Below, piece by piece: positions 236 to 59,674 of a DNA stretch of 60,958 nt. Every line of letters begins with the position of its first letter. Position 1 is the first letter of the stretch. The position numbers and the translations under genes were made by a program. Below the pieces are notes generated by a model that saw only the letters and a list, made by a program, of their open reading frames with translations, ran no database searches and had not been told where the DNA came from. Source of the stretch: a bacterium (GTDB lineage Bacteria > Patescibacteriota > Minisyncoccia > Phycocordibacterales > UBA6899); assembly GCA_043756865.1 (NCBI GenBank), contig JAYUQG010000028.1:1-60958 (forward strand), given 5' to 3'.

Positions 236-721
236 TTATTTGGCGATTTCTTTTAAATAATCGTCAAAGATTTTTATGTACTCATCCTTTGAGAAATGGA
301 ATTCAGGGATTTGCTCATATCCCTCCGAGACAGGGTCGGTATATTGATTTTCATACTTGAAATCACTCCAGATAATTTCCGCGTCCGTTTCTGTAAGCTT
401 TGCCGTAATAGCACCGCACATGGGATCTTCATCGACGGGGCAACCGTAGATAATGACTCGATCTTCGTTTAAGCCTGATTTTTTCTTATTGATCAAAACG
501 GCAACAGTCTCGGGGTCAAGCCTTTTTGAGGTTTCAGGCTGAATCCATTCATGGTTATCGGAATGGAGCCAGCCAATATGCGTTATGTATTTTTTTTGAT
601 CTTCAATAGGAAGGTACTCATTAAATGATTTTTCATCAATTAAAAAATCTCTGTACTCATGAAATACGTTTGTGCTTATGCTCTTGGTGTCCTTGGTTAC
701 TAGCGTGATCTTGTTGGGCAT
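236..721 (-). CDS. hypothetical protein, 161 aa, visibly AT-rich gene
   Basis: Single uninterrupted ORF, more AT-rich by eye than its neighbours. No motif recognised. Confidence 0.55.
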   Translation of the reverse strand: MPNKITLVTKDTKSISTNVFHEYRDFLIDEKSFNEYLPIEDQKKYITHIGWLHSDNHEWIQPETSKRLDPETVAVLINKKKSGLNEDRVIIYGCPVDEDPMCGAITAKLTETDAEIIWSDFKYENQYTDPVSEGYEQIPEFHFSKDEYIKIFDDYLKEIAK

Positions 722-1096: not shown

Positions 1097-4000
1097 CTAT
1101 GTCTTCACAATATCAACAGCCTCCCCCACTGCGTGGGAGGTTGCGCCGACAACTTGGTTGATTTCGTCCTTATGTGCTGCGTAGAGCTTGGCGAGGTCGG
1201 GGGTGAGCGAGAGCGTGATGCGGTCGGCGGGTTCGAGACCTGCTTTTTTGCGGAGGTCTTGAATTGCGCGGATGAAGTCGCGGACTTCTCCCTCTTCTTT
1301 GAGTTCGGGAGTTATCTCTGTATCAAGTGCGACGCGGGTAGCCTCAGTGTCGAGCTTCCTCACAATAACGACCTGTTTTACATTCACCTCGTCTTTGATG
1401 ATATCGAGTAGTTCGGTCTTCCCCTCAAGCTTCGGTGCAATAACTGAAAGTGTCGCGAGTGGCTGGCGGACCTTGATCCCTGCTTTGGCGCGCTCTTCAA
1501 GTGCAAGCGACACAAGCGTGCGCACCTCTTCCATTTCTTCAAGCACCGTGGTGAGTCCGACACTCATGGGTGGCCAGTCTTCTAGATGAATGCTTTCTTT
1601 TTTGTCTTCCACAGAGAGTTGCAAATAGAGGTCTTCAGCAGTGAAGGGCATAAAGGGTGCGATGAGTTTCGCAAACTGGAGGAGTACCCAGCCCGTGGTG
1701 GCTATCGCGGCGTCACGGTCAGCAGCGTCTTCTGACTTGAATCGGTCACGTGAGCGTCTGATGTACCATGTCGACCAATCATCGAGAAACGGAAGTATAG
1801 GCCGTGTCGCACGGTCGAGTTCGTGCGTGTCTAAGTGATGCGTGACTTCGGCATGTGTCTCGCTCAAGCGCGAAAGAATCCAGCGGTCGAGTGCGTATGG
1901 GCTTGCGAGAGCGGTTCGCGGAATTGCGAAGTTATTTGCATGCAGTGCGTAGAATGCGTGAATGTTCTCGAGTCTGAGTGTGAGTTTCTTGAACACCTCA
2001 TCTACGCCGAGTGTGGCGAAGCGCAACTCTTCGCCGCGCACCACGGGAGAATTCAACATATAAAAGCGGAGCGCGTCCGCACCAAACTTTGAGGTAATCT
2101 CCATCGGGTCAGGATAGTTCTTGAGCTTCTTCGACATCTTCTGACCGTCTTCTGCGAGGATAAGTCCCGTCGTGATAACGCTCTTAAATGCCGCACGGTC
2201 AAAGAGGCCCACGGAAAGTATGAGCATAGTATAGAACCAACCGCGTGTCTGGTCTTGCGCCTCTGCGATAAAGTCAGCGGGGAAATTTTTTACAAATAGC
2301 TTGCCGTCAGGTGTCGTCTCGTCGCCCATGTAATGAAACTGTGCATACGGCATGGAGCCAGACTCGAACCAACAATCAAATACTTCGGGGATACGTTCCA
2401 TGGTGCCGAGTTCGCATGAGCAGCGGTAACTCACGCGGTCAATGTATGGCCGATGAAAATCAAGCTCGTAGCGGTCGTTGTGTGGAAGTGGAGCAAACGC
2501 AAACGGGAGTGCTTCTGCGTAGTCGTAATAGTCATCTCCCCCCTCGACGCGCATCCACGCAGCATCGTCATCGGTGGCGCCTTTCGCCGCGGCATCGAGC
2601 ATCCATGTCCCATATTCGTGGGTGACAAAAAGAATCGTCTTGCCTTCGTATTTTTGATTTGCGTCATAGAGCGCTGATGCAACGCGCACAAACATTTGAC
2701 GCAAGTTCTCTCCGCCTGGGCTTGGTTTTGTAAATTTCTCAAGCGTCGAAGTAAAGTACGCACGATACGTGTCTATCGCGCATCCGTTGAAGTCACCCGT
2801 ATTTACTTCGGCAAGTCGTTCATCGAATATGACTGCGCTTTCAGGGATACCGAGCTCGCTCGCCACAATGCGTGCGGTTTCCTTGGTACGGAGCACAGGT
2901 GAAGCAATAATCATGTCGATACCTTTGTCCTTCAGCTTTGCAGCAGTCGCCGCAACTTGCGCACGACCATTTTCGGTCAAATGAAATTCGTCTTCGATTT
3001 TATAGCTCACAATACCCTTTATGTTTGCTTCAGATTCACCATGACGCATCACAAAGTAGTTGTTCGTGCTTTTTGTTTTCTCTGAGAGCGACGCGACAGA
3101 CCCATGTGCGTCTACTTTTCCGCACTTATTGCACTTCCACACGGGAAGTGGGGCACCCCAATACCGACTGCGAGAAATTGCCCAGTCGCGTGCGCCTTCG
3201 AGCCAGTGCCCAAACCGTCCATCACGAACTGACTCAGGAATCCACTTAATTTCTTTGTTTTCTTCGATGAGGCGGGGCTTGAGTGTGGTCACGTTTACAA
3301 ACCACGATGAAGCAGCGTAGTTCAAAAGCGGAGTGTCGCAACGCCAACAGTGGGGGTATGAGTGGGTGATATTTTCTTTTGCAAAAAAAGTACCGTGTTC
3401 CTGTAGATATTTGAGCACCGCGATGTCTGTTGCGAGACGCACTTTGTCGTCATCACTTTTTGGCTTCACCGACATGCCTGCAAAATCTTTTACTTCATGC
3501 TTCATTTGTCCATTCATGCCGACATGCTGAATCATCGGAAGTTTCAGCTTCTTTGCCAGTTCCATGTCTTCTTCACCAAACGCAGGAGCTTCGTGCACAA
3601 TTCCTGTTCCCGAATCAACCGTCACAAAATCAGCACCCACCACTTTCCATGCATTCTCACGATGCTCAAGTTTTTCGTCGGATGTGTAGTAGTCAAACAA
3701 AGGTTTATACGCTTTGCCGATCAAGTCTTTGCCTTTCTTTTCATCCACGACCTCGTGCACTTTATCCTTAAATATCTTTGCACACAGTTCTTTTGCAACA
3801 ATATACCGTGCTCCCTCGTGGGCCACGATTACATACACAAACTCAGGGTTCACCGCTATTGCGACATTACCTGGCAGTGTCCACGGAGTTGTCGTCCACG
3901 CAACAAGAAAAGTGCCCGGCTCATCCTTGAGTTCAAATTTTACATACACGGAAATATCTTTGATGTCCTTATACCCCTGCGCCACTTCGGAGGCGGCAAG

Positions 4001-4609
4001 TGTCGTCTCGCAGCGCGGACAAATGTGCATGGACTTAAAGCCTTCATAAATCAGCTTCTTGTCGTGGAGTGTCTTAAACGCCCACCACACACTCTCGGTA
4101 TATGATGCGTCCATGGTTTTGTATTCGTGGTCCATATCGACCCAACGACCCATTCGCGGAACAATGGAACGCCATTCTTTGTCGTACATGAGTACACTCT
4201 CGCGTGCTTTCTGGTTGAATCGCTCTACTCCGTACTCTTCTATTTCGCTCTTTTGTTTAAGTCCAAGTTCTTTTTCAATCAGATTTTCGATCGGCAGCCC
4301 GTGACAGTCCCAACCCCACTCACGGCGCACATGACGCCCGCGCATCGTCTGATAGCGCGGAATAACGTCTTTGATTGTCCCCTGTAAGAGATGCCCGTGG
4401 TGCGGAAGTCCTGTTGCAAAAGGAGGTCCATCATAAAAAACGTAGCGATCTTTCCCCTCATTTTTTTGTACTGATTTTTCAAAAATACGATGTTCCTTCC
4501 AGTACTCGAGCACTGCTGCTTCGCGTTCGCTGACTGACTGCTTTTTCTCACCTTTTGCTTTCTCGTCCATATGGAGGATTATACTATATGTTTTTCTGTT
4601 TTCAGGCAA
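1097..4609 (-). CDS. ileS: isoleucine--tRNA ligase (type-2-like) carrying an inserted histidine-phosphatase domain
   Basis: Motifs PHHGHLL (HIGH), KMSKK, WAISRSRYWG and EVFDCWFESGSMPYAQ are present. An alternative start at ATG 4570 (MDEKAKG) is preceded by TATAGTATAAT. Confidence 0.97.
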   Translation of the reverse strand: MPENRKTYSIILHMDEKAKGEKKQSVSEREAAVLEYWKEHRIFEKSVQKNEGKDRYVFYDGPPFATGLPHHGHLLQGTIKDVIPRYQTMRGRHVRREWGWDCHGLPIENLIEKELGLKQKSEIEEYGVERFNQKARESVLMYDKEWRSIVPRMGRWVDMDHEYKTMDASYTESVWWAFKTLHDKKLIYEGFKSMHICPRCETTLAASEVAQGYKDIKDISVYVKFELKDEPGTFLVAWTTTPWTLPGNVAIAVNPEFVYVIVAHEGARYIVAKELCAKIFKDKVHEVVDEKKGKDLIGKAYKPLFDYYTSDEKLEHRENAWKVVGADFVTVDSGTGIVHEAPAFGEEDMELAKKLKLPMIQHVGMNGQMKHEVKDFAGMSVKPKSDDDKVRLATDIAVLKYLQEHGTFFAKENITHSYPHCWRCDTPLLNYAASSWFVNVTTLKPRLIEENKEIKWIPESVRDGRFGHWLEGARDWAISRSRYWGAPLPVWKCNKCGKVDAHGSVASLSEKTKSTNNYFVMRHGESEANIKGIVSYKIEDEFHLTENGRAQVAATAAKLKDKGIDMIIASPVLRTKETARIVASELGIPESAVIFDERLAEVNTGDFNGCAIDTYRAYFTSTLEKFTKPSPGGENLRQMFVRVASALYDANQKYEGKTILFVTHEYGTWMLDAAAKGATDDDAAWMRVEGGDDYYDYAEALPFAFAPLPHNDRYELDFHRPYIDRVSYRCSCELGTMERIPEVFDCWFESGSMPYAQFHYMGDETTPDGKLFVKNFPADFIAEAQDQTRGWFYTMLILSVGLFDRAAFKSVITTGLILAEDGQKMSKKLKNYPDPMEITSKFGADALRFYMLNSPVVRGEELRFATLGVDEVFKKLTLRLENIHAFYALHANNFAIPRTALASPYALDRWILSRLSETHAEVTHHLDTHELDRATRPILPFLDDWSTWYIRRSRDRFKSEDAADRDAAIATTGWVLLQFAKLIAPFMPFTAEDLYLQLSVEDKKESIHLEDWPPMSVGLTTVLEEMEEVRTLVSLALEERAKAGIKVRQPLATLSVIAPKLEGKTELLDIIKDEVNVKQVVIVRKLDTEATRVALDTEITPELKEEGEVRDFIRAIQDLRKKAGLEPADRITLSLTPDLAKLYAAHKDEINQVVGATSHAVGEAVDIVKT

Positions 4610-4639: not shown

Positions 4640-4993
4640 TCAACTCTTTGGAGACATGCGGGCACTCTCGCCACAACCGCACACGTCGGCGCCGTCAGGG
4701 ATGACTACGACCGTACGGTTCGCAAACGGGCCCACGCCATTAGTGGTGAGCACAATCGCCGCATTCGCGAAACTCGGACATTCGAGCGGACTGTACACAA
4801 TCGAGAGGCCGTACGCGTGTAGGACCGAATCGCCCGCAAGTACGGTGCCACCCCGCTCGAGACGACTGCCGATATCCCCGCAACCGGACGCGCGTACTTC
4901 GCGAAGCCTTAACGGTTGTCCTCCCGCAGTCGGAACTGCCCGCATTTGTCCAAGCAGAAACTCCGCTACTTCTTTCGTAATTGTGATACCCAT
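4640..4993 (-). CDS. HesB/IscA-family iron-sulfur cluster insertion protein (divergent)
   Basis: ITITKEVAEFL N-terminus, GCG at about aa 37 and C-terminal CGCGES give the three conserved Cys. A GGAGG lies 5 nt upstream of ATG 4993. Confidence 0.7.
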   Translation of the reverse strand: MGITITKEVAEFLLGQMRAVPTAGGQPLRLREVRASGCGDIGSRLERGGTVLAGDSVLHAYGLSIVYSPLECPSFANAAIVLTTNGVGPFANRTVVVIPDGADVCGCGESARMSPKS

Positions 4994-5077
4994 GTATTCC
5001 TCCACTCAAATAGCAACCTCTCTCCATTCTATGCATGACGCAGAAAAAAGAAAGCCACCCGTGAAGGGCGGCGTGGG

Positions 5078-5851
5078 TTATTGAGAGGCAAGCTCGGCGA
5101 ACCAATCCTCTAGTGTTGCGGATACTGCCACTTCAAACGCTTCGGGCGGACCACCGTTGTCGATAACTGCGTGTGCGTGACCTTCAAGCAATCGGATTTC
5201 TCGCTCCGCTTCAGCGTTTCCGAGTTCGATGAACTGGGCAAGAGTGAGGCAATCGTCGCCTGGCTTTTCGTTCCGCAGCTTATGGCGCTGGTGGCGAATG
5301 TCCGTATGCGCAAACACATAGGTCAGACGAAACACCACACTGGGGTCATGCATCAAGGTGCCGATATCGACCAGTCGTCGAATCCCCTCGAACACAATAA
5401 AGGGGCTCGAGGAGTTCACACCCCTCGCACGCGACATGAGCGCGCGCTCAAGAATGTTTTCACCAAAGTGGTGGCGGGCGGCAGTTGAAATTGCTTGCAG
5501 GTCGGGAGTGCTGGCGCTCGCATTCCACACGCCCTTGCGTACAGGAATGAATTCAGTGACGACCCACGCGGCAAAGGCAGTATGCGCATTATTGTCTGCG
5601 CGTGCATTTGGTGTAAATTCAAAAGACACTTCCGCGACCTCACGAATATGCAACCTCAGCAGGCGTTCGTCTGAGGGCATGCCCGAGAGACGCCCGTCTG
5701 GAATTCTAGCGATTAATCCGGCATAAAACTCGCGGAGCGAATCCGAGAATCGAAATGACGGAGTCCGTGGATACCACTGCTTAATCAAGTCCGTCGCGGT
5801 ACCTTTGCCTGAAGCCATCTCGCCCGCGAAGCCAAGAATGATTTTTTTCAT
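5078..5851 (-). CDS. P-loop nucleotide/nucleoside kinase-like protein
   Basis: Walker A GEMASGKGT lies right after the start MKKIILGFAG. A GGAGG lies 4 nt upstream of ATG 5851. Confidence 0.6.
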   Translation of the reverse strand: MKKIILGFAGEMASGKGTATDLIKQWYPRTPSFRFSDSLREFYAGLIARIPDGRLSGMPSDERLLRLHIREVAEVSFEFTPNARADNNAHTAFAAWVVTEFIPVRKGVWNASASTPDLQAISTAARHHFGENILERALMSRARGVNSSSPFIVFEGIRRLVDIGTLMHDPSVVFRLTYVFAHTDIRHQRHKLRNEKPGDDCLTLAQFIELGNAEAEREIRLLEGHAHAVIDNGGPPEAFEVAVSATLEDWFAELASQ

Positions 5852-5951
5852 CGCACCTCCAAAAAGAGAACAGAAAATGCTACTTTCCGTATGGTAGGGG
5901 CACACTCATGAAAAAACAACTCGACGGGATGCCAACGCTGTCGTGTATGTG

Positions 5952-51101: not shown

Positions 51102-53099
51102 TTACTTAAGTAATGAACCTCCCCACTCCACAACAGTAAATCCATCGCGGCTTGGTGTTTCAGGAAGCACCTGCACTGGGAGTGTCTCTTTTCTTGCAGT
51201 TGCCTGCGCATACATCACCACGCGGATAATTTGGTCGGGACGTTTCTCTCCCACAACACGAAGTGGCGCCATGAGATTAAATTCTTCTTGGTCAAGGAAC
51301 ATAATCTTGTGATAGGGAGCATTGTCTTCCGCAAGCTTCGCTACCCAGTACTCATTAAAATCGGCAATTTCCTTTGCATTTAGGCCGAGCAGTGTCAGCT
51401 TGTCAACCAAGAATCGCGGTATGTCGCCCCGCGCAACTACCCACCCCTTGGTAATTGCGGGTGTATCAATACTCCAACCAGCCCAATACAGATAGGGGTA
51501 CGTCTGCTTGCTTAACTTATCGATAATTGTTCCGTCGGGGTGCGCAGTCACATGCCATCCGTTGTTGTACTCAGGAATAGTATGAGTAAAGCCGCCGTTC
51601 GGTGCGACATAGACACTCACATCCATTTCTTTCTCGGGATAAAGATAAATTACCGGTTTGCACTTTTCTGCGGCCTGCACATATTTTTTATTCTTCATTT
51701 CGATCCACCGACCAAAAGGATCTTGCCAATACAGGAACGGATTGAGTGCGAGAAACTCATCATATGAAGGCGTCAACTTCTGATAGGCAGCCATCGTGTT
51801 CTTGTCTTCGTATAACACTTTCAGCTTTGGTTCGACTGGTGCAAGAGCGAAGAATGGCTCGCCGAGACTGTTGCGTGCTACCTCATACAACCCATTTGGT
51901 TTTTGGACAACAGGAAGGCAGCTCCAGTCGGAATCTACGTCATAGGATTCGTTAAAATTTTTACCGTTTGAAAGTGTGAGATCGACAACGCCATTCTCCT
52001 TGTTCATGAAGGGTAATTGTAGTGAATAGTACACAAGGGCATGGTCTTGTCGTTTTGCGACTATGCAGCTGCGGTAATAACTTGTTTCGTATATGTTCCC
52101 CACAACAGGGTCGGTAAACAGCGTTTTGGTTGTCCCTTCCTTGTCGAACACTCCTGATGCAAAATCTTTTTTCAGTACATAGGAAGAATTGGGTATCGCA
52201 ATCACATCAGGTGTTTGGACTACCGTGACAGTAAATCCGCTCGCATTGCCCACAGGAATCACACGATCTCCATGATAAATATGATAGACGAGTTCATCTT
52301 CTGATCTTCCACCACAGTCCATCCCGCATTCAGATGCAATTTTTGCAATGATACGGTCGCCCTTGAACACACCATTATTCACTGTTCCCACGATGTGACC
52401 ATTCGGTTCTGCGCAATACCGTCCTGCCCGTTCTTCTCGAGTCTCAATAACAAGAGGAGGTCCCTTGCTCCAAATGACATTAAGCGCATATGGTCGCAAA
52501 TCAATACTTGGCGGAAAAAATGTGACACTTGCTAATAGTTCTTGCGGGATTCTTTCTCCCCACATGTCGAGCACGTAATGTTCACCCATCACGAGCAAAG
52601 CCGTTTCAGGATACCCGTACTCACTTGGTCTGTCCTTTCGTAATAAATATGCGTCGTGACCTGCTACCGTAACTTTTTCTTTTATCATTCCGCCGTAGTT
52701 TTCGTTCACCCAATTAGACTCCTTGGCATTAAATAAATCATCGAGGGTGACCCCCTTACCCACGGTGCGCGCTTCAACACAGAAGTTTTCCTGTCCGCGA
52801 GTAAAACAATTTCCATAGCGAGTATGTGCTGGTGCAACCGAACTTGGGTAGACGTACGAATAACCCATCAGTTCGTCACGATAGGTATTCCAAGTGGTCG
52901 CTGAGGAACTCGCCACTAAAGTGACGAATGGTTCGTGTTCAGGGGTGAGGGGTTGCACATTAAGTGCGTTTTGGGCAGGTGCGGGAGGGGGAGGATTCTT
53001 GATAGTGCCGCTCATCCGCACCGCTGAAACTATCACCGTGGCGACAAACACCACCAGTACTAGGGAAAGCAGAACACGGGCAATTTGAGAATGGTTCAT
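51102..53099 (-). CDS. large membrane-anchored hypothetical protein (665 aa)
   Basis: N-terminal TM helix. Only 2 nt separate it from the downstream CapA-fusion gene. No motif recognised. Confidence 0.6.
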   Translation of the reverse strand: MNHSQIARVLLSLVLVVFVATVIVSAVRMSGTIKNPPPPAPAQNALNVQPLTPEHEPFVTLVASSSATTWNTYRDELMGYSYVYPSSVAPAHTRYGNCFTRGQENFCVEARTVGKGVTLDDLFNAKESNWVNENYGGMIKEKVTVAGHDAYLLRKDRPSEYGYPETALLVMGEHYVLDMWGERIPQELLASVTFFPPSIDLRPYALNVIWSKGPPLVIETREERAGRYCAEPNGHIVGTVNNGVFKGDRIIAKIASECGMDCGGRSEDELVYHIYHGDRVIPVGNASGFTVTVVQTPDVIAIPNSSYVLKKDFASGVFDKEGTTKTLFTDPVVGNIYETSYYRSCIVAKRQDHALVYYSLQLPFMNKENGVVDLTLSNGKNFNESYDVDSDWSCLPVVQKPNGLYEVARNSLGEPFFALAPVEPKLKVLYEDKNTMAAYQKLTPSYDEFLALNPFLYWQDPFGRWIEMKNKKYVQAAEKCKPVIYLYPEKEMDVSVYVAPNGGFTHTIPEYNNGWHVTAHPDGTIIDKLSKQTYPYLYWAGWSIDTPAITKGWVVARGDIPRFLVDKLTLLGLNAKEIADFNEYWVAKLAEDNAPYHKIMFLDQEEFNLMAPLRVVGEKRPDQIIRVVMYAQATARKETLPVQVLPETPSRDGFTVVEWGGSLLK

Positions 53100-55966: not shown

Positions 55967-58900
55967 CTAGAGTGGCGCAGTTGTGAGGAATGGGTCGAAG
56001 AGTACCCCCGCTGTCACAGCGTCACCGACCGAGCCTGAAGGCATGCTCGGTGACGTCGGACCGAGTATGTTGCCCCAATAATTCCCCGTTGCATCAATCT
56101 GAGTGCCGATAGTCGGCGTTGCATTTGCAACCCCTGCTGTGGTGTTCTCGGTAATCACCGAGCTCTCCACGTCCACAACAGAGTTAAAGGACCGTACGCC
56201 GTAGTTATTCCCCACAAGCATGACGTCTTTCGCGTTGACCGTACTGCCGAATGACAAAATGGCAGTATCTCTAAAATTTTCAATTGTTGATGAGGCAATT
56301 ACAAGCGCAGACCCAGCGGTAAGTGTGATCGCATCATCTTTCCCGTTTTTTGCCACCAAGTCAGTCACCGTCGCGCGCGAACCTATCATATTGAAAATGT
56401 CGCCTTCACCCATATTCTGCACGGTTACACCGTTAAAATTCCCATTGGATGCTTTTCCCGCTCTGTTGGTAAACAAGTCAATTGCATTCTTGGTCACGTG
56501 CACATCAGCAAACACCGTATTGGTCGCATTCACAGACGACCCAAATGCATCAATGCCGATGCCGCTGACGCCCGTAAATGTAGTGTCCGTAAGCGCAAGT
56601 GCTGTACCGTCAAAAAGCACAAATGCATCAGACCCTGTGCGCGCGACCGTCGTACTGGCAAGCGTTATGCTTGAACTCGCAAACGCAACAATAGAGTTAC
56701 CCGTAATATCATAAAAAGAGGTATCTGTTCCAGAAAGTGTAGACGCATGGAGATACATGGCGTGTTGCGAATCGGAAATCGTTGTGGACACAAGCGTTGC
56801 CGATGCACCACTCGTGAGATGCAGGGCAGTTCCCGCATATCGTATCTCGGTTTCATTAAATTCTGCCGTAGCTACCGCACCGGAAATTGCGATCGCTTGC
56901 ACAGAGTTATTGCGTCGCACTGGTTGTACCCCGTCACCAAGGGTATCTCCTCCCGCACTGTCGTCGTCGATTGACGTGAACACCACAGCTGCTTCGCGGT
57001 CGCCATAAGCGCGGAGGGCACCACGCACAACGAGTTTTCCGCTTGAGGGCATCCATTTAACCACAGTCCCTGCTCCTAATGTGAGCGAGGAGTCTGCAGG
57101 TATGGTGAGTGTGGAGAAGAGCACATATGCGCCCTGTCCTTTTGCAAATGTCTGCATTCCCTCTATGGTACTGGTGAGTGCAAGTGAGTAGTTCAGGGAA
57201 TTTCGCGCACCTGGGGTTCCAAGAATTCCGTTTCCATTGCGGTCTAACCCGTTAGAAAAATTCCCGTTATTTGAGTCCCAGTTTTCCCAAACTGCGGTGT
57301 CGAGTTCGCTCCGCCACCGTTCCATTGAAACCCCGACAGCCCCATTTCCGCACCAATCTACACAAAGAGGTATATGGTCGATGACCATGTCCGTACCCAT
57401 ACTTGAGTCAATAAGTTCGAGCTCCATTCCCGTTTCAGGAAGTGCGGCCATACCATATATCCAAGGCTGAAGCATTGGGTACGCAATAGATGCAGGAACT
57501 TGTGGCTCAACTACTCCTGAACTATTTGCTACAACAAAATAGTCACCCGGACCGAGTATTCCCGTGAGTGGCGTGGTGGACCATGTGTCAACACTATGAA
57601 ACCGAATACTGTACTGCGAGAGATCAGCAGGAGCATCGCCTGCATTGTAGAGCTCAATCCACTCGTCATCGGGTGAAGCTTCTGTGCCTCCCCATGCTAT
57701 CTCGTTGAAAAGCACACGTGAGTTTTGCGTTACTGGTTGTGACGGTGGAACAACCATGAGCGGTGAAACTACCACCACGTCGCGAAACACGGGGGATGAA
57801 CTATTCCCCGCATCGTCTATTGCCACCACGCCAATGGTCGTTGTACCAAACGGTAGTAGCACCTGTGCCGACCATTCACCTGTTGATGTTGCGCGGGTTT
57901 CAAAAACTACAGTTACCGTATCCATCAACCACGAAAGTGCGACCACAGCTCCCCCCTCTGCCGTCCCCGAAATCAGTACCGATGTCGTTGCGATAACTTC
58001 ATGTACAATTGGCGAGTGTATGAGTGGCGCATCGGGCGCAGTCAGATCTTTGGGAACGATTACCTCTTCACTGGTCGTGGCCACGGGAAGTACTGGTGGT
58101 GTAGCCACAGAAGCGTCGGCAAGAAAGATGACGGTTCCACTGCCTCCGCCTCCCCCACCAAGCGAGTTTGCGGTAACCTCGTATGGACTTACAACAGTTG
58201 CAGCCCCGGCGACTTCACCAGTACTCGGCGGAGTCACTCGCGCCGCCCTAATGCTCGCAATGAGTTGCGTGAGGCGGGTAATTTCTTTTTCGAGCGCAGC
58301 AAGCAAAGTACTATGTTGAGGTTGCTGAGTATCTGAGACAACTACGGTGGTTCTCCCATTATCGACAGCGTTTTCAGTGATGGGCTTTGTCTGCGGTACA
58401 AAATCTGCGTCTGTAGGAATAACTTCTTTCCAAATAGCGTATCTTACATTTTCGTTTGCCGAATTAAGCGTATTTCCCACGTACGCAATTCCTTTTGTTA
58501 CTCCTCCTGCAGCAAATTTACCTACCGTCCCCGTGCGACGAATGAGTGAGGCGATAAGCCGTGAACCAGTATTCCCCGCAACGGCAACCGCTCGAACTCC
58601 TGCAACTCCAGCTTGCTTCAAGAGCGGTTCTTTCATGCGAAGCAGAGTGCCCGTCTGTTTTTCCTTTTCAACTTCGAGAAAGAAAAGCCGAATAACCCCA
58701 GCACCATTTTTTACCGCTTCACGGGAGGTTAGTTGCCAATAGTTGGAGAGAATTATTTTATCAGCGTCTTGAATATCATATGTTTCAACTTTTGTTCCAT
58801 CAAGTTTTCGAGTCGTTTCTATCTGTACAAAAAAGTGGTCTTTATGCTTACCAAAACTTTTTGTATCCCCCGTGCTCAGCATTATGCTCGCTAAATTTTC

Positions 58901-59674
58901 AATAACTGGGAGGGAGTAGTTCTTGTCAAAAATTGTACTTTTGCTGAAAAAGTTTGAATTTGAATAGCTTGCAGTATTGTCAAAATATATATCAAGAGTG
59001 TCCACAATATGGGGATTTGCACCTTCAGATAAGAGTTTCTTTGCGGTATCCACATTTTTGTTTAGTAGCGAAAACTGGTCTGCAAATTCCTCAAATGGAC
59101 TTGACTCACCAAAATTTTCATCATATTGCTGTATCGCCTTGTCGAAAATGGGAATATGAGCATCATCTCTTGTATGGTCTGGCACAGTTGCATCCTCAAT
59201 AAGGTGCAGTGTGTGGCCTAGCGCTTCCATTGCATTCTTTCTGTCTCCGTAAGTATATTCATAAATTGCACGTTGCCACGAGCGGTCGCATGGGCTTTCA
59301 AAAAGCGGAAATAACACGTGGGGCTGAATGAGACATCCTCCCGGTCCGCTACTCCACGACGCTTGGTATGCGGGACTTTGCGCCCAAGTCTTCGAAGACA
59401 TGTATTGCTTGAGCCCAATATTACGCACAGGGTCATAAAAATGGTGCGCCATGCGATAGTTATCATCTTCCGCCATCGCTCCTTTTTGCAAAAGTGTTCG
59501 ATATTCATCCGAGAGTGTGGGTGTCCCATATTCTGAAGCAAAGACATTATAAAAATTAGCCACTTCGTACGTAAGTGCGTCATGCGTAGAATTCGGCTCA
59601 TATGCAAAAAGCCCTGCAGGCGAAAGCGCGACAAGAAGTGTGGTTACAACAATTAGGGTGAGGCGATTTTCCAT
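55967..59674 (-). CDS. 1235-aa secreted protein: zinc phospholipase-C-like N-domain + lamin-tail domain + parallel beta-helix repeats
   Basis: Signal peptide. HDALTYE...HTLHLIEDATVPDHTRDD is PLC/P1-like. VLFNEIAWGGTEASPDDEWIELYNAG is LTD-like. The C-terminal third has Gly/Thr/Ser-rich ~22-aa beta-helix-type repeats. Confidence 0.75.
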   Translation of the reverse strand: MENRLTLIVVTTLLVALSPAGLFAYEPNSTHDALTYEVANFYNVFASEYGTPTLSDEYRTLLQKGAMAEDDNYRMAHHFYDPVRNIGLKQYMSSKTWAQSPAYQASWSSGPGGCLIQPHVLFPLFESPCDRSWQRAIYEYTYGDRKNAMEALGHTLHLIEDATVPDHTRDDAHIPIFDKAIQQYDENFGESSPFEEFADQFSLLNKNVDTAKKLLSEGANPHIVDTLDIYFDNTASYSNSNFFSKSTIFDKNYSLPVIENLASIMLSTGDTKSFGKHKDHFFVQIETTRKLDGTKVETYDIQDADKIILSNYWQLTSREAVKNGAGVIRLFFLEVEKEKQTGTLLRMKEPLLKQAGVAGVRAVAVAGNTGSRLIASLIRRTGTVGKFAAGGVTKGIAYVGNTLNSANENVRYAIWKEVIPTDADFVPQTKPITENAVDNGRTTVVVSDTQQPQHSTLLAALEKEITRLTQLIASIRAARVTPPSTGEVAGAATVVSPYEVTANSLGGGGGGSGTVIFLADASVATPPVLPVATTSEEVIVPKDLTAPDAPLIHSPIVHEVIATTSVLISGTAEGGAVVALSWLMDTVTVVFETRATSTGEWSAQVLLPFGTTTIGVVAIDDAGNSSSPVFRDVVVVSPLMVVPPSQPVTQNSRVLFNEIAWGGTEASPDDEWIELYNAGDAPADLSQYSIRFHSVDTWSTTPLTGILGPGDYFVVANSSGVVEPQVPASIAYPMLQPWIYGMAALPETGMELELIDSSMGTDMVIDHIPLCVDWCGNGAVGVSMERWRSELDTAVWENWDSNNGNFSNGLDRNGNGILGTPGARNSLNYSLALTSTIEGMQTFAKGQGAYVLFSTLTIPADSSLTLGAGTVVKWMPSSGKLVVRGALRAYGDREAAVVFTSIDDDSAGGDTLGDGVQPVRRNNSVQAIAISGAVATAEFNETEIRYAGTALHLTSGASATLVSTTISDSQHAMYLHASTLSGTDTSFYDITGNSIVAFASSSITLASTTVARTGSDAFVLFDGTALALTDTTFTGVSGIGIDAFGSSVNATNTVFADVHVTKNAIDLFTNRAGKASNGNFNGVTVQNMGEGDIFNMIGSRATVTDLVAKNGKDDAITLTAGSALVIASSTIENFRDTAILSFGSTVNAKDVMLVGNNYGVRSFNSVVDVESSVITENTTAGVANATPTIGTQIDATGNYWGNILGPTSPSMPSGSVGDAVTAGVLFDPFLTTAPL

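Follow-up and report, generated by a model that had tools for sequence, protein, structure and literature searches.

The contig JAYUQG010000028.1 (60,958 nucleotides; assembly GCA_043756865.1), which we analysed over its whole length and refer to as the window, belongs to a bacterium of the Patescibacteriota (Minisyncoccia, Phycocordibacterales, UBA6899). On its minus strand it carries ileS, a gene for a type-2 isoleucyl-tRNA synthetase (IleRS) that harbours, nested in frame within its catalytic domain, a complete branch-1 histidine phosphatase domain. The ileS open reading frame (ORF; 1097..4609) is unbroken, comprises 1170 codons and begins at TTG. The database protein P0001 has 1157 amino acids (aa), and the true start is therefore probably Met14, encoded by the ATG at 4568-4570. 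The mechanically assigned TTG start lies 13 codons upstream of this implied ATG (window 4570-4609), and residues 1-20 were modelled with a predicted local distance difference test score (pLDDT) below 50. Residue numbers refer to the 1170-codon ORF throughout, and all motif positions were checked by translation of the exact coordinates.

The synthetase itself is complete. Its score against the ileS equivalog model TIGR00392 (863.1 bits, cut-off 621.4) identifies it as an isoleucine--tRNA ligase, and the best solved matches are the IleRS2 structures 8c8v and 8c8u together with 1ile. The protein matched the type-2 enzyme 8c8v with E=1e-222 and the type-1 enzymes 8c9e or 1ffy with E ~1e-93; with IleRS2 as nearest relative and a DUF5915 domain at the C-terminus, it belongs to the type-2 enzymes. 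In Pfam searches the tRNA-synt_1 match (E=3.3e-129) was broken into two stretches. The first (aa 33-516) marks the region 3134..4570, in which the Rossmann catalytic domain begins with its N-terminal half and which also holds CP2 and the editing domain CP1. The second falls in the region 1889..2413, which completes the Rossmann fold and leads into the stem-contact region. The anticodon-binding domain (Anticodon_1, PF08264, aa 908-1051, E=1.8e-28) and the type-2 C-terminal DUF5915 (PF19302, aa 1090-1160, E=1.6e-17) complete the protein at 1130..1888. The enzyme keeps its own HIGH motif (PHHGH, 4391-4405), its KMSKS motif (KMSKK, 2126-2140) and the CP1 editing motifs WTTTPWTLP (3872-3898) and GTGIVH (3593-3610), and translation also revealed WFESG (2357-2371) and DQTRGWF (2234-2254).

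A full-length AlphaFold2 (AF2) model had a pLDDT of 84.6 and a predicted template modelling score (pTM) of 0.75. Confidence was low only at residues 1-20 and in the KMSKS loop, and the insert with both its junctions reached 82-96. Structure comparison matched the body of the model to type-2 IleRS (8c8u, TMt 0.77). Two more specialised assignments were rejected. The models for the mupirocin-resistance enzymes MupA and MupB (NF000257, NF000258) gave 680 and 740 bits against 1900, which reflects general type-2 similarity only, and the model ileS_w_GNAT (NF040702) gave 308.7 bits against a cut-off of 1999, with no GNAT match in the protein.

The nested histidine phosphatase

Between the two tRNA-synt_1 stretches, aa 516-712 (2474..3064) form an additional domain, for which the initial annotation had given 2462-3067 (aa 515-716). 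Pfam His_Phos_1 (PF00300) matched aa 519-682 over profile positions 2-165 of 194 (E=5.9e-31; 108.1 bits, cut-off 21.7). When modelled alone by AF2, the insert reached a pLDDT of 94.8 and a pTM of 0.91. The top Foldseek matches of this model were PspA, GpgP (Rv2419c), PhoE, a riboflavin-pathway histidine-family phosphatase and CobC, at 20-27% identity, the best with E ~1e-13 and TM scores of 0.67-0.78. All 50 matches listed were histidine phosphatases or cofactor-dependent phosphoglycerate mutases (dPGMs) with a probability of 1.00. A profile search of the PDB sequences agreed, with PspA, PhoE, CobC, TIGAR and GpgP as the nearest solved proteins. A chance match is excluded by these E-values.

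The catalytic set of the superfamily (RHG, Asn, second Arg, Glu and second His) is present in the insert and aligns with that of PhoE and PspA. R522-H523-G524...N529, which contains the predicted phosphate pocket and nucleophilic histidine, is encoded at 3023..3046 (RHG, aa 522-524: 3038-3046). R574, the putative second phosphate-binding arginine, lies at 2888..2890 in an SPxxRTxET motif (SPVLRTKETA here). The candidate general acid/base E601 (2807..2809) is part of an ExxxGxFxG motif inside ERLAEVNTGDFNG, a motif of PhoE type (E-I-H-L-G-D-W-E-G), and the presumed second catalytic histidine, H664 (2618..2620), is found in LFVTHEYG (VTHEY). We compared the protein with its 120 nearest homologues from NCBI, JGI, ENA and Logan assemblies (55-75% identical), of which 120/120 carry PF00300. 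R522, H523, G524, N529, R574, E601 and H664 were 100% invariant in these 120 sequences, and the comparison shows a predicted active site that is intact and under selection.

A further conserved element, TYRAYFTSTLEKFTK (aa 614-628; 2726..2770), is presumed to be the lid that specifies the substrate. Its consensus, EYRxYFSSTLEKFTK, is maintained in the clade of the window (Y615 99%, F619 95%, E624 97%, K628 93%). It is not kept in the copies at other IleRS sites (sites B and C, see below) or in valyl-tRNA synthetase (ValRS), where the lid is shortened or variable. With a lid motif that is specific to one clade, a single substrate pocket common to all nested copies is unsupported. The domain is also acidic, with a median isoelectric point (pI) of 5.4; the copy in the window has a pI of 4.8 and a net charge of -11.

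Every curated equivalog model was missed widely (dPGM_arch, GpmB, PspA, CobC and RNase H/acid phosphatase). The models for dPGM gave 88.2 bits against 225 (NF038349) and 43.7 against 316 (NF002339), GpmB 47.5 against 261 (NF002901), the PspA orthologue model 58.1 against 350 (NF045917) and the CobC orthologue model 66.5 against 162.9 (TIGR03162). Because these cut-offs were missed and the motif following the glutamate is of the phosphatase type, the insert is, judged by its sequence, a phosphomonoesterase of the PhoE/PspA/CobC type without assigned specificity rather than a mutase. PhoE/YhfR of G. stearothermophilus (1h2e/1ebb), the phosphoserine phosphatase PspA (4ij5), the alpha-ribazole phosphatase CobC (6nru/6e4b) and GpgP (4pz9) share with it the fold, the catalytic set, the ExxxGxW/FxG motif and a length of ~200 aa. 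In contrast to these free-standing enzymes, the insert is nested, is no more than 20-27% identical to them (21-27% for PspA and CobC), has its own lid motif and stays under all equivalog cut-offs.

The reading of the insert as an intein or mobile insertion is likewise unsupported: Pfam detected no Hint, intein or endonuclease family, and the entire insert folds as His_Phos. The residue following P-H-N at its end, which bears on the intein test, varies between Asp, Ala and Glu among the 120 homologues, the GC content matches that of the host gene, and the junctions are fixed in 80 species. Furthermore, no profile of PADLOC-DB matched the insert, and a role as a component of anti-phage defence is unsupported.

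The initial annotation had described a continuous 1170-aa IleRS ORF, with the motifs it quoted, that contains a full branch-1 histidine phosphatase with intact catalytic signatures. The ORF was confirmed by translation and by TIGR00392, and the HMM (hidden Markov model) search, the AF2 model of the isolated insert, Foldseek and the invariance of the signatures bear out the remainder. These comparisons show one polypeptide with two predicted enzymes, a fully equipped type-2 IleRS and a complete phosphatase of ~197 aa.

Insertion site, distribution and age

The phosphatase interrupts CP3, a small peripheral subdomain through which CP2 is connected to the Rossmann fold's second half and whose topology varies among IleRS lineages (PMC7191050). 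In T. thermophilus IleRS, CP3 bears a zinc-binding motif (PMC7191050). In the window protein, the first half of this zinc knuckle, C493-N-K-C496 (3122..3133), overlies CQAC (Cys461/464) of the T. thermophilus enzyme (1ile). It is followed by a neck (aa 497-515; 3065..3121) that enters the insert as a beta-hairpin and a short helix in the full-length model. On the C-terminal side the chain leaves the insert through the junction motif P709-H710-N711 (2477..2485) and returns into IleRS at 2414..2455, where HRPYID (2438-2455) and C730-S-C732 (2414-2422), the second half of the knuckle, align with HRPYVD and CAC of 1ile.

Both edges of the insert are well conserved. C493 and C496 are each conserved in at least 90% of a 48-sequence alignment. 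In the 120 homologues, the values are 98% for C496, 98-99% for C730 and C732, and 99-100% for H719, R720, P721 and D724. In the neck, which was modelled with a pLDDT of 87-90, G503 is invariant and L508 is 92% conserved, and at the exit (pLDDT 82-84) P709, H710 and N711 reach 91%, 98% and 90%, respectively.

Alignment with IleRS2 of P. megaterium (8c8v) placed residue 509 of the query at residue 475 of the chain and residue 715 at residue 485. When aa 516-712 were removed in silico, the flanks aligned essentially gap-free to the IleRS of T. thermophilus, human, yeast, Candida and P. megaterium (among them 1ile, 9w01, 6ldk and 8c8v). Ordinary type-2 IleRS thus run nearly straight across the site, in agreement with the initial annotation. 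These data show that the phosphatase springs from the tip of the zinc-knuckle hairpin of CP3, and that its base is gripped by the four zinc cysteines, with both ends held together. An exit point of this kind, on a hairpin pinned by zinc and in a subdomain of naturally varying topology, explains how neither fold is disrupted. The solved type-2 enzymes (8c8u/8c8v, 1ile, and the yeast and human cytoplasmic IleRS) have the same domain order, the HIGH and KMSKS motifs, the CP1 motifs and DUF5915, and 1ile has the same CP3 zinc knuckle. However, they have nothing in the CP3 hairpin at the position where the window protein has ~197 extra residues.

The CP1 editing domain of IleRS, ValRS and leucyl-tRNA synthetase (LeuRS) is likewise a hydrolytic domain in a Rossmann loop of a class Ia synthetase. 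CP1 is universal and acts on the aminoacyl ester, whereas the insert is lineage-specific, lies in CP3 and would act on phosphate esters.

We then recovered, with one peptide pattern, at least 253 confirmed GTDB species representatives that encode the nested phosphatase. These are titled Lloyd-, Yonath-, Nomura-, Campbell-, Wolfe- and Niyogibacteria, Paceibacterota and Parcubacteria, and they include a complete Campbellbacteria genome (CP011215). The nearest relatives of the window protein are Lloydbacteria, of the Parcubacteria group of the Patescibacteria. The domain was present as a single copy in 80/80 loci of GTDB species. It begins 24 aa past RYWGxPxP in 68 of the 74 loci in which this motif was found, and it leads into HRPYID in all 69 loci with that motif (69/69). 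The stretch of aa 505-722 is tightly conserved in length among the homologues (215-224 aa), and in mean identity to the window protein the insert (54%) falls below the two halves of IleRS (71% and 66%) and above the C-terminal domain (42%). The GC content is 0.496 in the insert and 0.500 in the remaining gene, without compositional anomaly. An assembly chimera is ruled out by the same architecture in many independent assemblies, the fixed junctions in 80/80 loci and the uniform GC.

The phosphatase is missing from the solved IleRS structures and from insert-free relatives (1030-1106 aa), which supports the lineage-specific insertion proposed initially. The survey of related genomes suggested there returned the same fusion throughout the species representatives listed above. 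Of the proposal that the module had been grafted into a class-I aminoacyl-tRNA synthetase (aaRS), the nesting stands and a recent graft does not. The distribution shows one ancient insertion, early in the Parcubacteria-group Patescibacteria, that was inherited vertically with all catalytic residues retained.

Related domains, sister lineages and surroundings

A search with the insert against 1.84 billion representatives yielded 11,384 matches, 41 of them at E<=1e-30, and hosts were counted among the best 150 of the 11,384. IleRS accounted for 102 of these, with one further IleRS fragment, and ValRS for one. Another 44 were matches to the domain only, either fragments or free-standing. The remaining hosts were a complete arginyl-tRNA synthetase (ArgRS) with a C-terminal His_Phos (P0265; L087/L088 5001-7070 (+)) and a fusion of His_Phos with YrdC/Sua5, of the TsaC type in the t6A pathway (P0219; L086 977-2140 (+)). 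No metabolic-enzyme host was found among these best 150. The P0265 gene is internal to two independently assembled 70-kb contigs, and the P0219 gene is complete on its contig. The ArgRS and TsaC/YrdC fusions are joined end to end, in contrast to the nested copies in IleRS and ValRS.

Among the ~200-aa matches, P0123, P0137 and P0183 proved to be pieces of IleRS with a nested copy. Three others, P0142, P0179 and P0191, look free-standing and are only 35-38% identical to the insert. We found no free-standing His_Phos gene beside insert-free IleRS genes; a ValRS with a nested copy was found instead.

In the IleRS of Gracilibacteria, Peregrinibacteria and Peribacteria, one to three His_Phos copies occupy three sites: the CP3 knuckle (site A), the segment between WFESG and DQTRGW (site B) and a position past KMSKS and ahead of the anticodon-binding domain (site C). 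ValRS with His_Phos at the homologous CP3 position, after WGHQIPVWY and before DTLDTWFSS, is widespread in Gracilibacteria and Peregrinibacteria (L084 15319-19204 (+); L085 9725-13610 (+); proteins P0393-P0412 and others). At least four tandem copies were found in P0124, a truncated ValRS relative. Genomes paired by the length of their longest contig have the domain in both IleRS and ValRS in several cases (962,416, 768,182, 743,733, 246,330 and 82,623 bp), others in IleRS only or in ValRS only, and one (1,023,206 bp) in neither. All extra copies that we examined at these other sites and hosts keep the same catalytic residues and are only 22-38% identical among themselves. The ValRS P0393 has, in addition, a stretch of ~250 aa of unrecognised nature behind its phosphatase.

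Other enzyme classes are nested in the same way. IleRS of 1370-1860 aa combine His_Phos, GNAT, a P-loop kinase resembling AAA_33, AAA_18 or Zeta toxin, and Ser_hydrolase at the three sites. The module-bearing proteins, of Gracilibacteria/Peregrinibacteria type, are P0276, P0278, P0288, P0327, P0329, P0331, P0337, P0338, P0345, P0353 and P0359. In P0337 a non-homologous HAD phosphatase lies at site B and His_Phos is absent. The kinases co-nested in some IleRS are of nucleotide-kinase, polynucleotide kinase (PNK) or L-seryl-tRNA(Sec) kinase (PSTK) type. Among curated models, the nested kinase of P0353 (aa 1170-1345) matched L-seryl-tRNA(Sec) kinase best (TIGR03574, E=9.3e-10), although its 38 bits fall far short of the cut-off of 290, and two other nested kinases that we tested had generic P-loop matches only.

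NF040702 ('isoleucine--tRNA ligase, N-acetyltransferase domain-containing') is a curated precedent for an IleRS with an accessory enzyme domain, from a different lineage; the GNAT-bearing IleRS of Patescibacteria are not members, as P0288 scored only 245 bits against 1999. PFKFB (6-phosphofructo-2-kinase/fructose-2,6-bisphosphatase, 1bif) combines a histidine phosphatase with a P-loop kinase, as do some Gracilibacteria IleRS. The mycobacterial RNase H/acid phosphatase (NF005567) also contains a fused histidine phosphatase, and with its model the insert reached 79 bits, under the cut-off of 326. Both are end-to-end fusions with known substrates, whereas the insert is nested in a synthetase. One JGI name registers the composite nature of such a protein: 'isoleucyl-tRNA synthetase/phosphohistidine phosphatase SixA/N-acetylglutamate synthase-like GNAT'. 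Full-text searches of an incomplete literature collection turned up no account of a synthetase with an embedded histidine phosphatase or GNAT. The component families are known and CP1 is a precedent for nesting; the phosphatase-in-IleRS architecture is without description in the literature searched.

Some IleRS contain in-frame segments resembling the IS200-like Y1 transposase, DUF559 (Vsr-like endonuclease) or MuF_C, in part within the CP1 editing-domain region (P0255 aa 340-461; P0359 aa 346-470; P0353 aa 294-399; P0289 aa 572-675; P0329 aa 291-348). Such segments may be selfish elements, or domesticated ones, that have entered an essential gene. Directly after the insert-free IleRS gene P0339, and convergent with it, lies a free-standing Ser_hydrolase/PGAP1-like gene of 169 aa (L083 11332-11841 (-)), the product of which has no detectable similarity to the nested Ser_hydrolase of P0327 (E=0.49).

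Elsewhere the gene content of the window is unremarkable for such a genome, with an ArgRS of normal length, FtsH, GlmS, a Na/H exchanger, and wall and surface proteins. Searches for tRNA, tmRNA and Rfam families over all 61 kb (1-60958), the flanks of ileS included, were negative. Downstream of ileS, a gap of 375 bp (722-1096; GC ~0.52-0.56) contains unsupported ORFs on both strands and has no Rfam match at E<=1. Just upstream, a GC-rich stretch (0.62) contains a 121-aa ORF (4640-5005 (-)) without a Pfam match at E<=0.01. It ends in ...DVCGCGESA, which we take to resemble the IscA/HesB signature. A 1235-aa protein with a lamin-tail domain and a beta-helix (55967-59674 (-)) is probably a surface protein, and ORFs of 665, 275 and 161 aa (51102-53099 (-), 5078-5905 (-) and 236-721 (-)) have no Pfam family.

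Possible roles of the nested phosphatase

All identified hosts, IleRS, ValRS, ArgRS and TsaC, turn ATP into AMP and pyrophosphate (PPi) in tRNA-linked chemistry. Judging from these fusion partners, we consider it moderately probable that the phosphatase has some functional tie to tRNA enzymes that consume ATP and was not carried along at random, because the hosts are IleRS (at three sites), ValRS, ArgRS and TsaC with no metabolic enzyme in the nearest 150, and because genomes keep several active-looking copies and a non-homologous HAD phosphatase can occupy IleRS instead. The fuller explanation that we favour, a bifunctional IleRS-phosphomonoesterase functionally coupled to such enzymes, seems to us about evenly balanced between right and wrong. 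From the chemistry of the family, a phosphomonoester would be hydrolysed via a phospho-His523 intermediate, in which R522, N529, R574 and H664 would hold the phosphate and E601 would serve as acid/base. The phosphatase might then clear or recycle a small nucleotide-type by-product common to the hosts, such as AMP, PPi or a related adenylation side-product, acting in trans close to the enzyme and without strict channelling. We regard clearance of such a by-product as the single most likely mechanism, with a weak and tentative preference. A small by-product is favoured over tRNA because TsaC does not handle the CCA end and because the domain is acidic.

Several observations weigh against this coupling. 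The lid is conserved in the clade of the window only, and nested copies need not share a substrate. With three insertion sites and from one to at least four copies, a fixed geometry relative to the synthetic site is improbable. Histidine phosphatases are, to our knowledge, not established as pyrophosphatases, and dephosphorylation of AMP looks wasteful for a salvage-dependent cell. The same loops accept GNAT, hydrolase, DUF559 and Y1-transposase-like modules, which fits IleRS as a permissive landing pad. Moreover, one genome has no His_Phos in IleRS and ValRS alike, which indicates that the domain is dispensable in some lineages. Finally, the gene of the free-standing P0179 (35% identical; L082 583-2164 (+)) overlaps the end of a ROK-family kinase gene.

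Part of this evidence leads to the strongest alternative, in which the domain would be an ordinary metabolic phosphatase, for phosphoserine, a sugar phosphate or a cofactor-pathway phosphate, and would have nothing to do with aminoacylation. The insertion-tolerant loops of large, constitutive essential genes would then merely secure its expression and retention in a tiny, regulator-poor genome. The neighbours of P0179, a HAD hydrolase and GlmS next to the ROK sugar kinase, provide a sugar-phosphate context that speaks for it, and the nearest characterised relatives of the insert are metabolic small-molecule phosphatases. The variable sites and copy numbers, the diverse caps, the genome without the domain, and the unrelated modules in the same loops, including the selfish-looking DUF559 and Y1_Tnp, point in the same direction, as does the naturally variable topology of CP3 (PMC7191050). 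On the other hand, the identified hosts in the closest 150 are all tRNA-linked and ATP-consuming, with no metabolic enzyme among them. Copies in both IleRS and ValRS, or two to at least four per protein, would be needless for a single housekeeping enzyme, and an analogous HAD phosphatase replaces His_Phos in one IleRS. We therefore consider a mere passenger rather doubtful.

The embedded modules of IleRS, ValRS, ArgRS and TsaC (histidine or HAD phosphatase, PNK/PSTK-like kinase, GNAT and hydrolase) could also form a toolkit that acts on the end of tRNA or aminoacyl-tRNA or on adenylate side-products, which we judge unlikely. If true, this toolkit would be a new layer of on-enzyme tRNA healing or quality control, with the IleRS-phosphatase of the window as its minimal and most widespread form.

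A narrower version, maintenance of the tRNA end alone, is more improbable still. Here the phosphatase would strip a 2'- or 3'-phosphate (or pyrophosphate) from the CCA end to make the tRNA chargeable again after damage by ribotoxins or pyrophosphorylating toxins, and the PNK/PSTK-like kinases and GNATs of the sister lineages would belong to the same on-enzyme kit for healing or surveillance. The aaRS hosts do bind the CCA end, and the co-nested P-loop kinases, one with L-seryl-tRNA(Sec) kinase as its best curated match, give a faint hint in this direction. T4 Pnkp pairs a kinase with a phosphatase, and the E. coli CCA-adding enzyme has a phosphatase-active HD domain. In both, a phosphatase is attached to a tRNA-end enzyme; their folds differ from that of the insert (HAD and HD), and the insert is acidic. 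The low pI, in the window copy as in the median, speaks against this role, as do the nearest folds, which are all small-molecule enzymes, and the PSTK match, which is far under its cut-off. Sites A, B and C lie in different regions of the enzyme, and TsaC/YrdC makes threonylcarbamoyl-AMP and does not act at the CCA end.

We also regard it as very unlikely that the insert is a protein phosphatase or a switch. It would in that case dephosphorylate IleRS or a translation factor, for instance to reverse a HipA- or Doc-type toxin kinase, or its phospho-His would sense a phosphometabolite and tune IleRS. The superfamily includes the protein phosphatases SixA, PGAM5 and Sts-1, and kinase modules are co-nested in sister lineages. 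The rigid, well-ordered junctions (pLDDT 82-90) with conserved N516, Y518 and P709-H710-N711 could, moreover, relay a conformational change. However, the insert has no sequence affinity to SixA, PGAM5 or Sts, its best matches being PhoE, PspA and CobC; a partner kinase was not found in the window, and there was no PADLOC or toxin-system match.

Two explanations can be set aside as hardly credible. A catalytically silent lobe, spacer or binding surface on CP3 has nothing specific in its favour beyond the varying sites and copy numbers, and is at odds with the 100% invariance of the seven catalytic and phosphate-binding positions against ~54% identity elsewhere, a pattern repeated at the other sites and hosts. 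Equally improbable is local detoxification of a phosphate-bearing inhibitor of IleRS or ValRS, with the GNAT, kinase and esterase of the sister lineages as further antibiotic-modifying activities: acetyltransferases, kinases and serine hydrolases are the classic antibiotic-inactivating classes and IleRS is a known antibiotic target, of mupirocin (PMC7191050), but ArgRS and TsaC do not fit as hosts and the window protein bears the phosphatase alone. We also know of no natural IleRS inhibitor with a phosphomonoester.

Bacterial aaRSs are generally held to be architecturally conservative, and domain accretion is held to be a eukaryotic feature in which the added domains are mostly non-catalytic. 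In the present case, the catalytic domain of an essential synthetase encloses a second enzyme that is apparently active, and this holds throughout a very large bacterial radiation, with at least 253 species representatives. Among relatives, nesting recurs at further sites, in different synthetases and with enzymes of different classes, and the IleRS of the window is one case of a wider pattern in translation enzymes of Patescibacteria. Annotation pipelines label such proteins 'isoleucyl-tRNA synthetase', 'class I tRNA ligase family protein' or 'hypothetical'. CP3 and the two further IleRS loops are natural domain-insertion sites, useful for protein engineering. If the phosphatase is only a passenger, it would represent an unusual form of gene packaging in streamlined genomes. 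If it is coupled to aminoacylation, by product clearance, tRNA-end maintenance or regulation, it would be a new accessory activity of the translation apparatus in minimal genomes.

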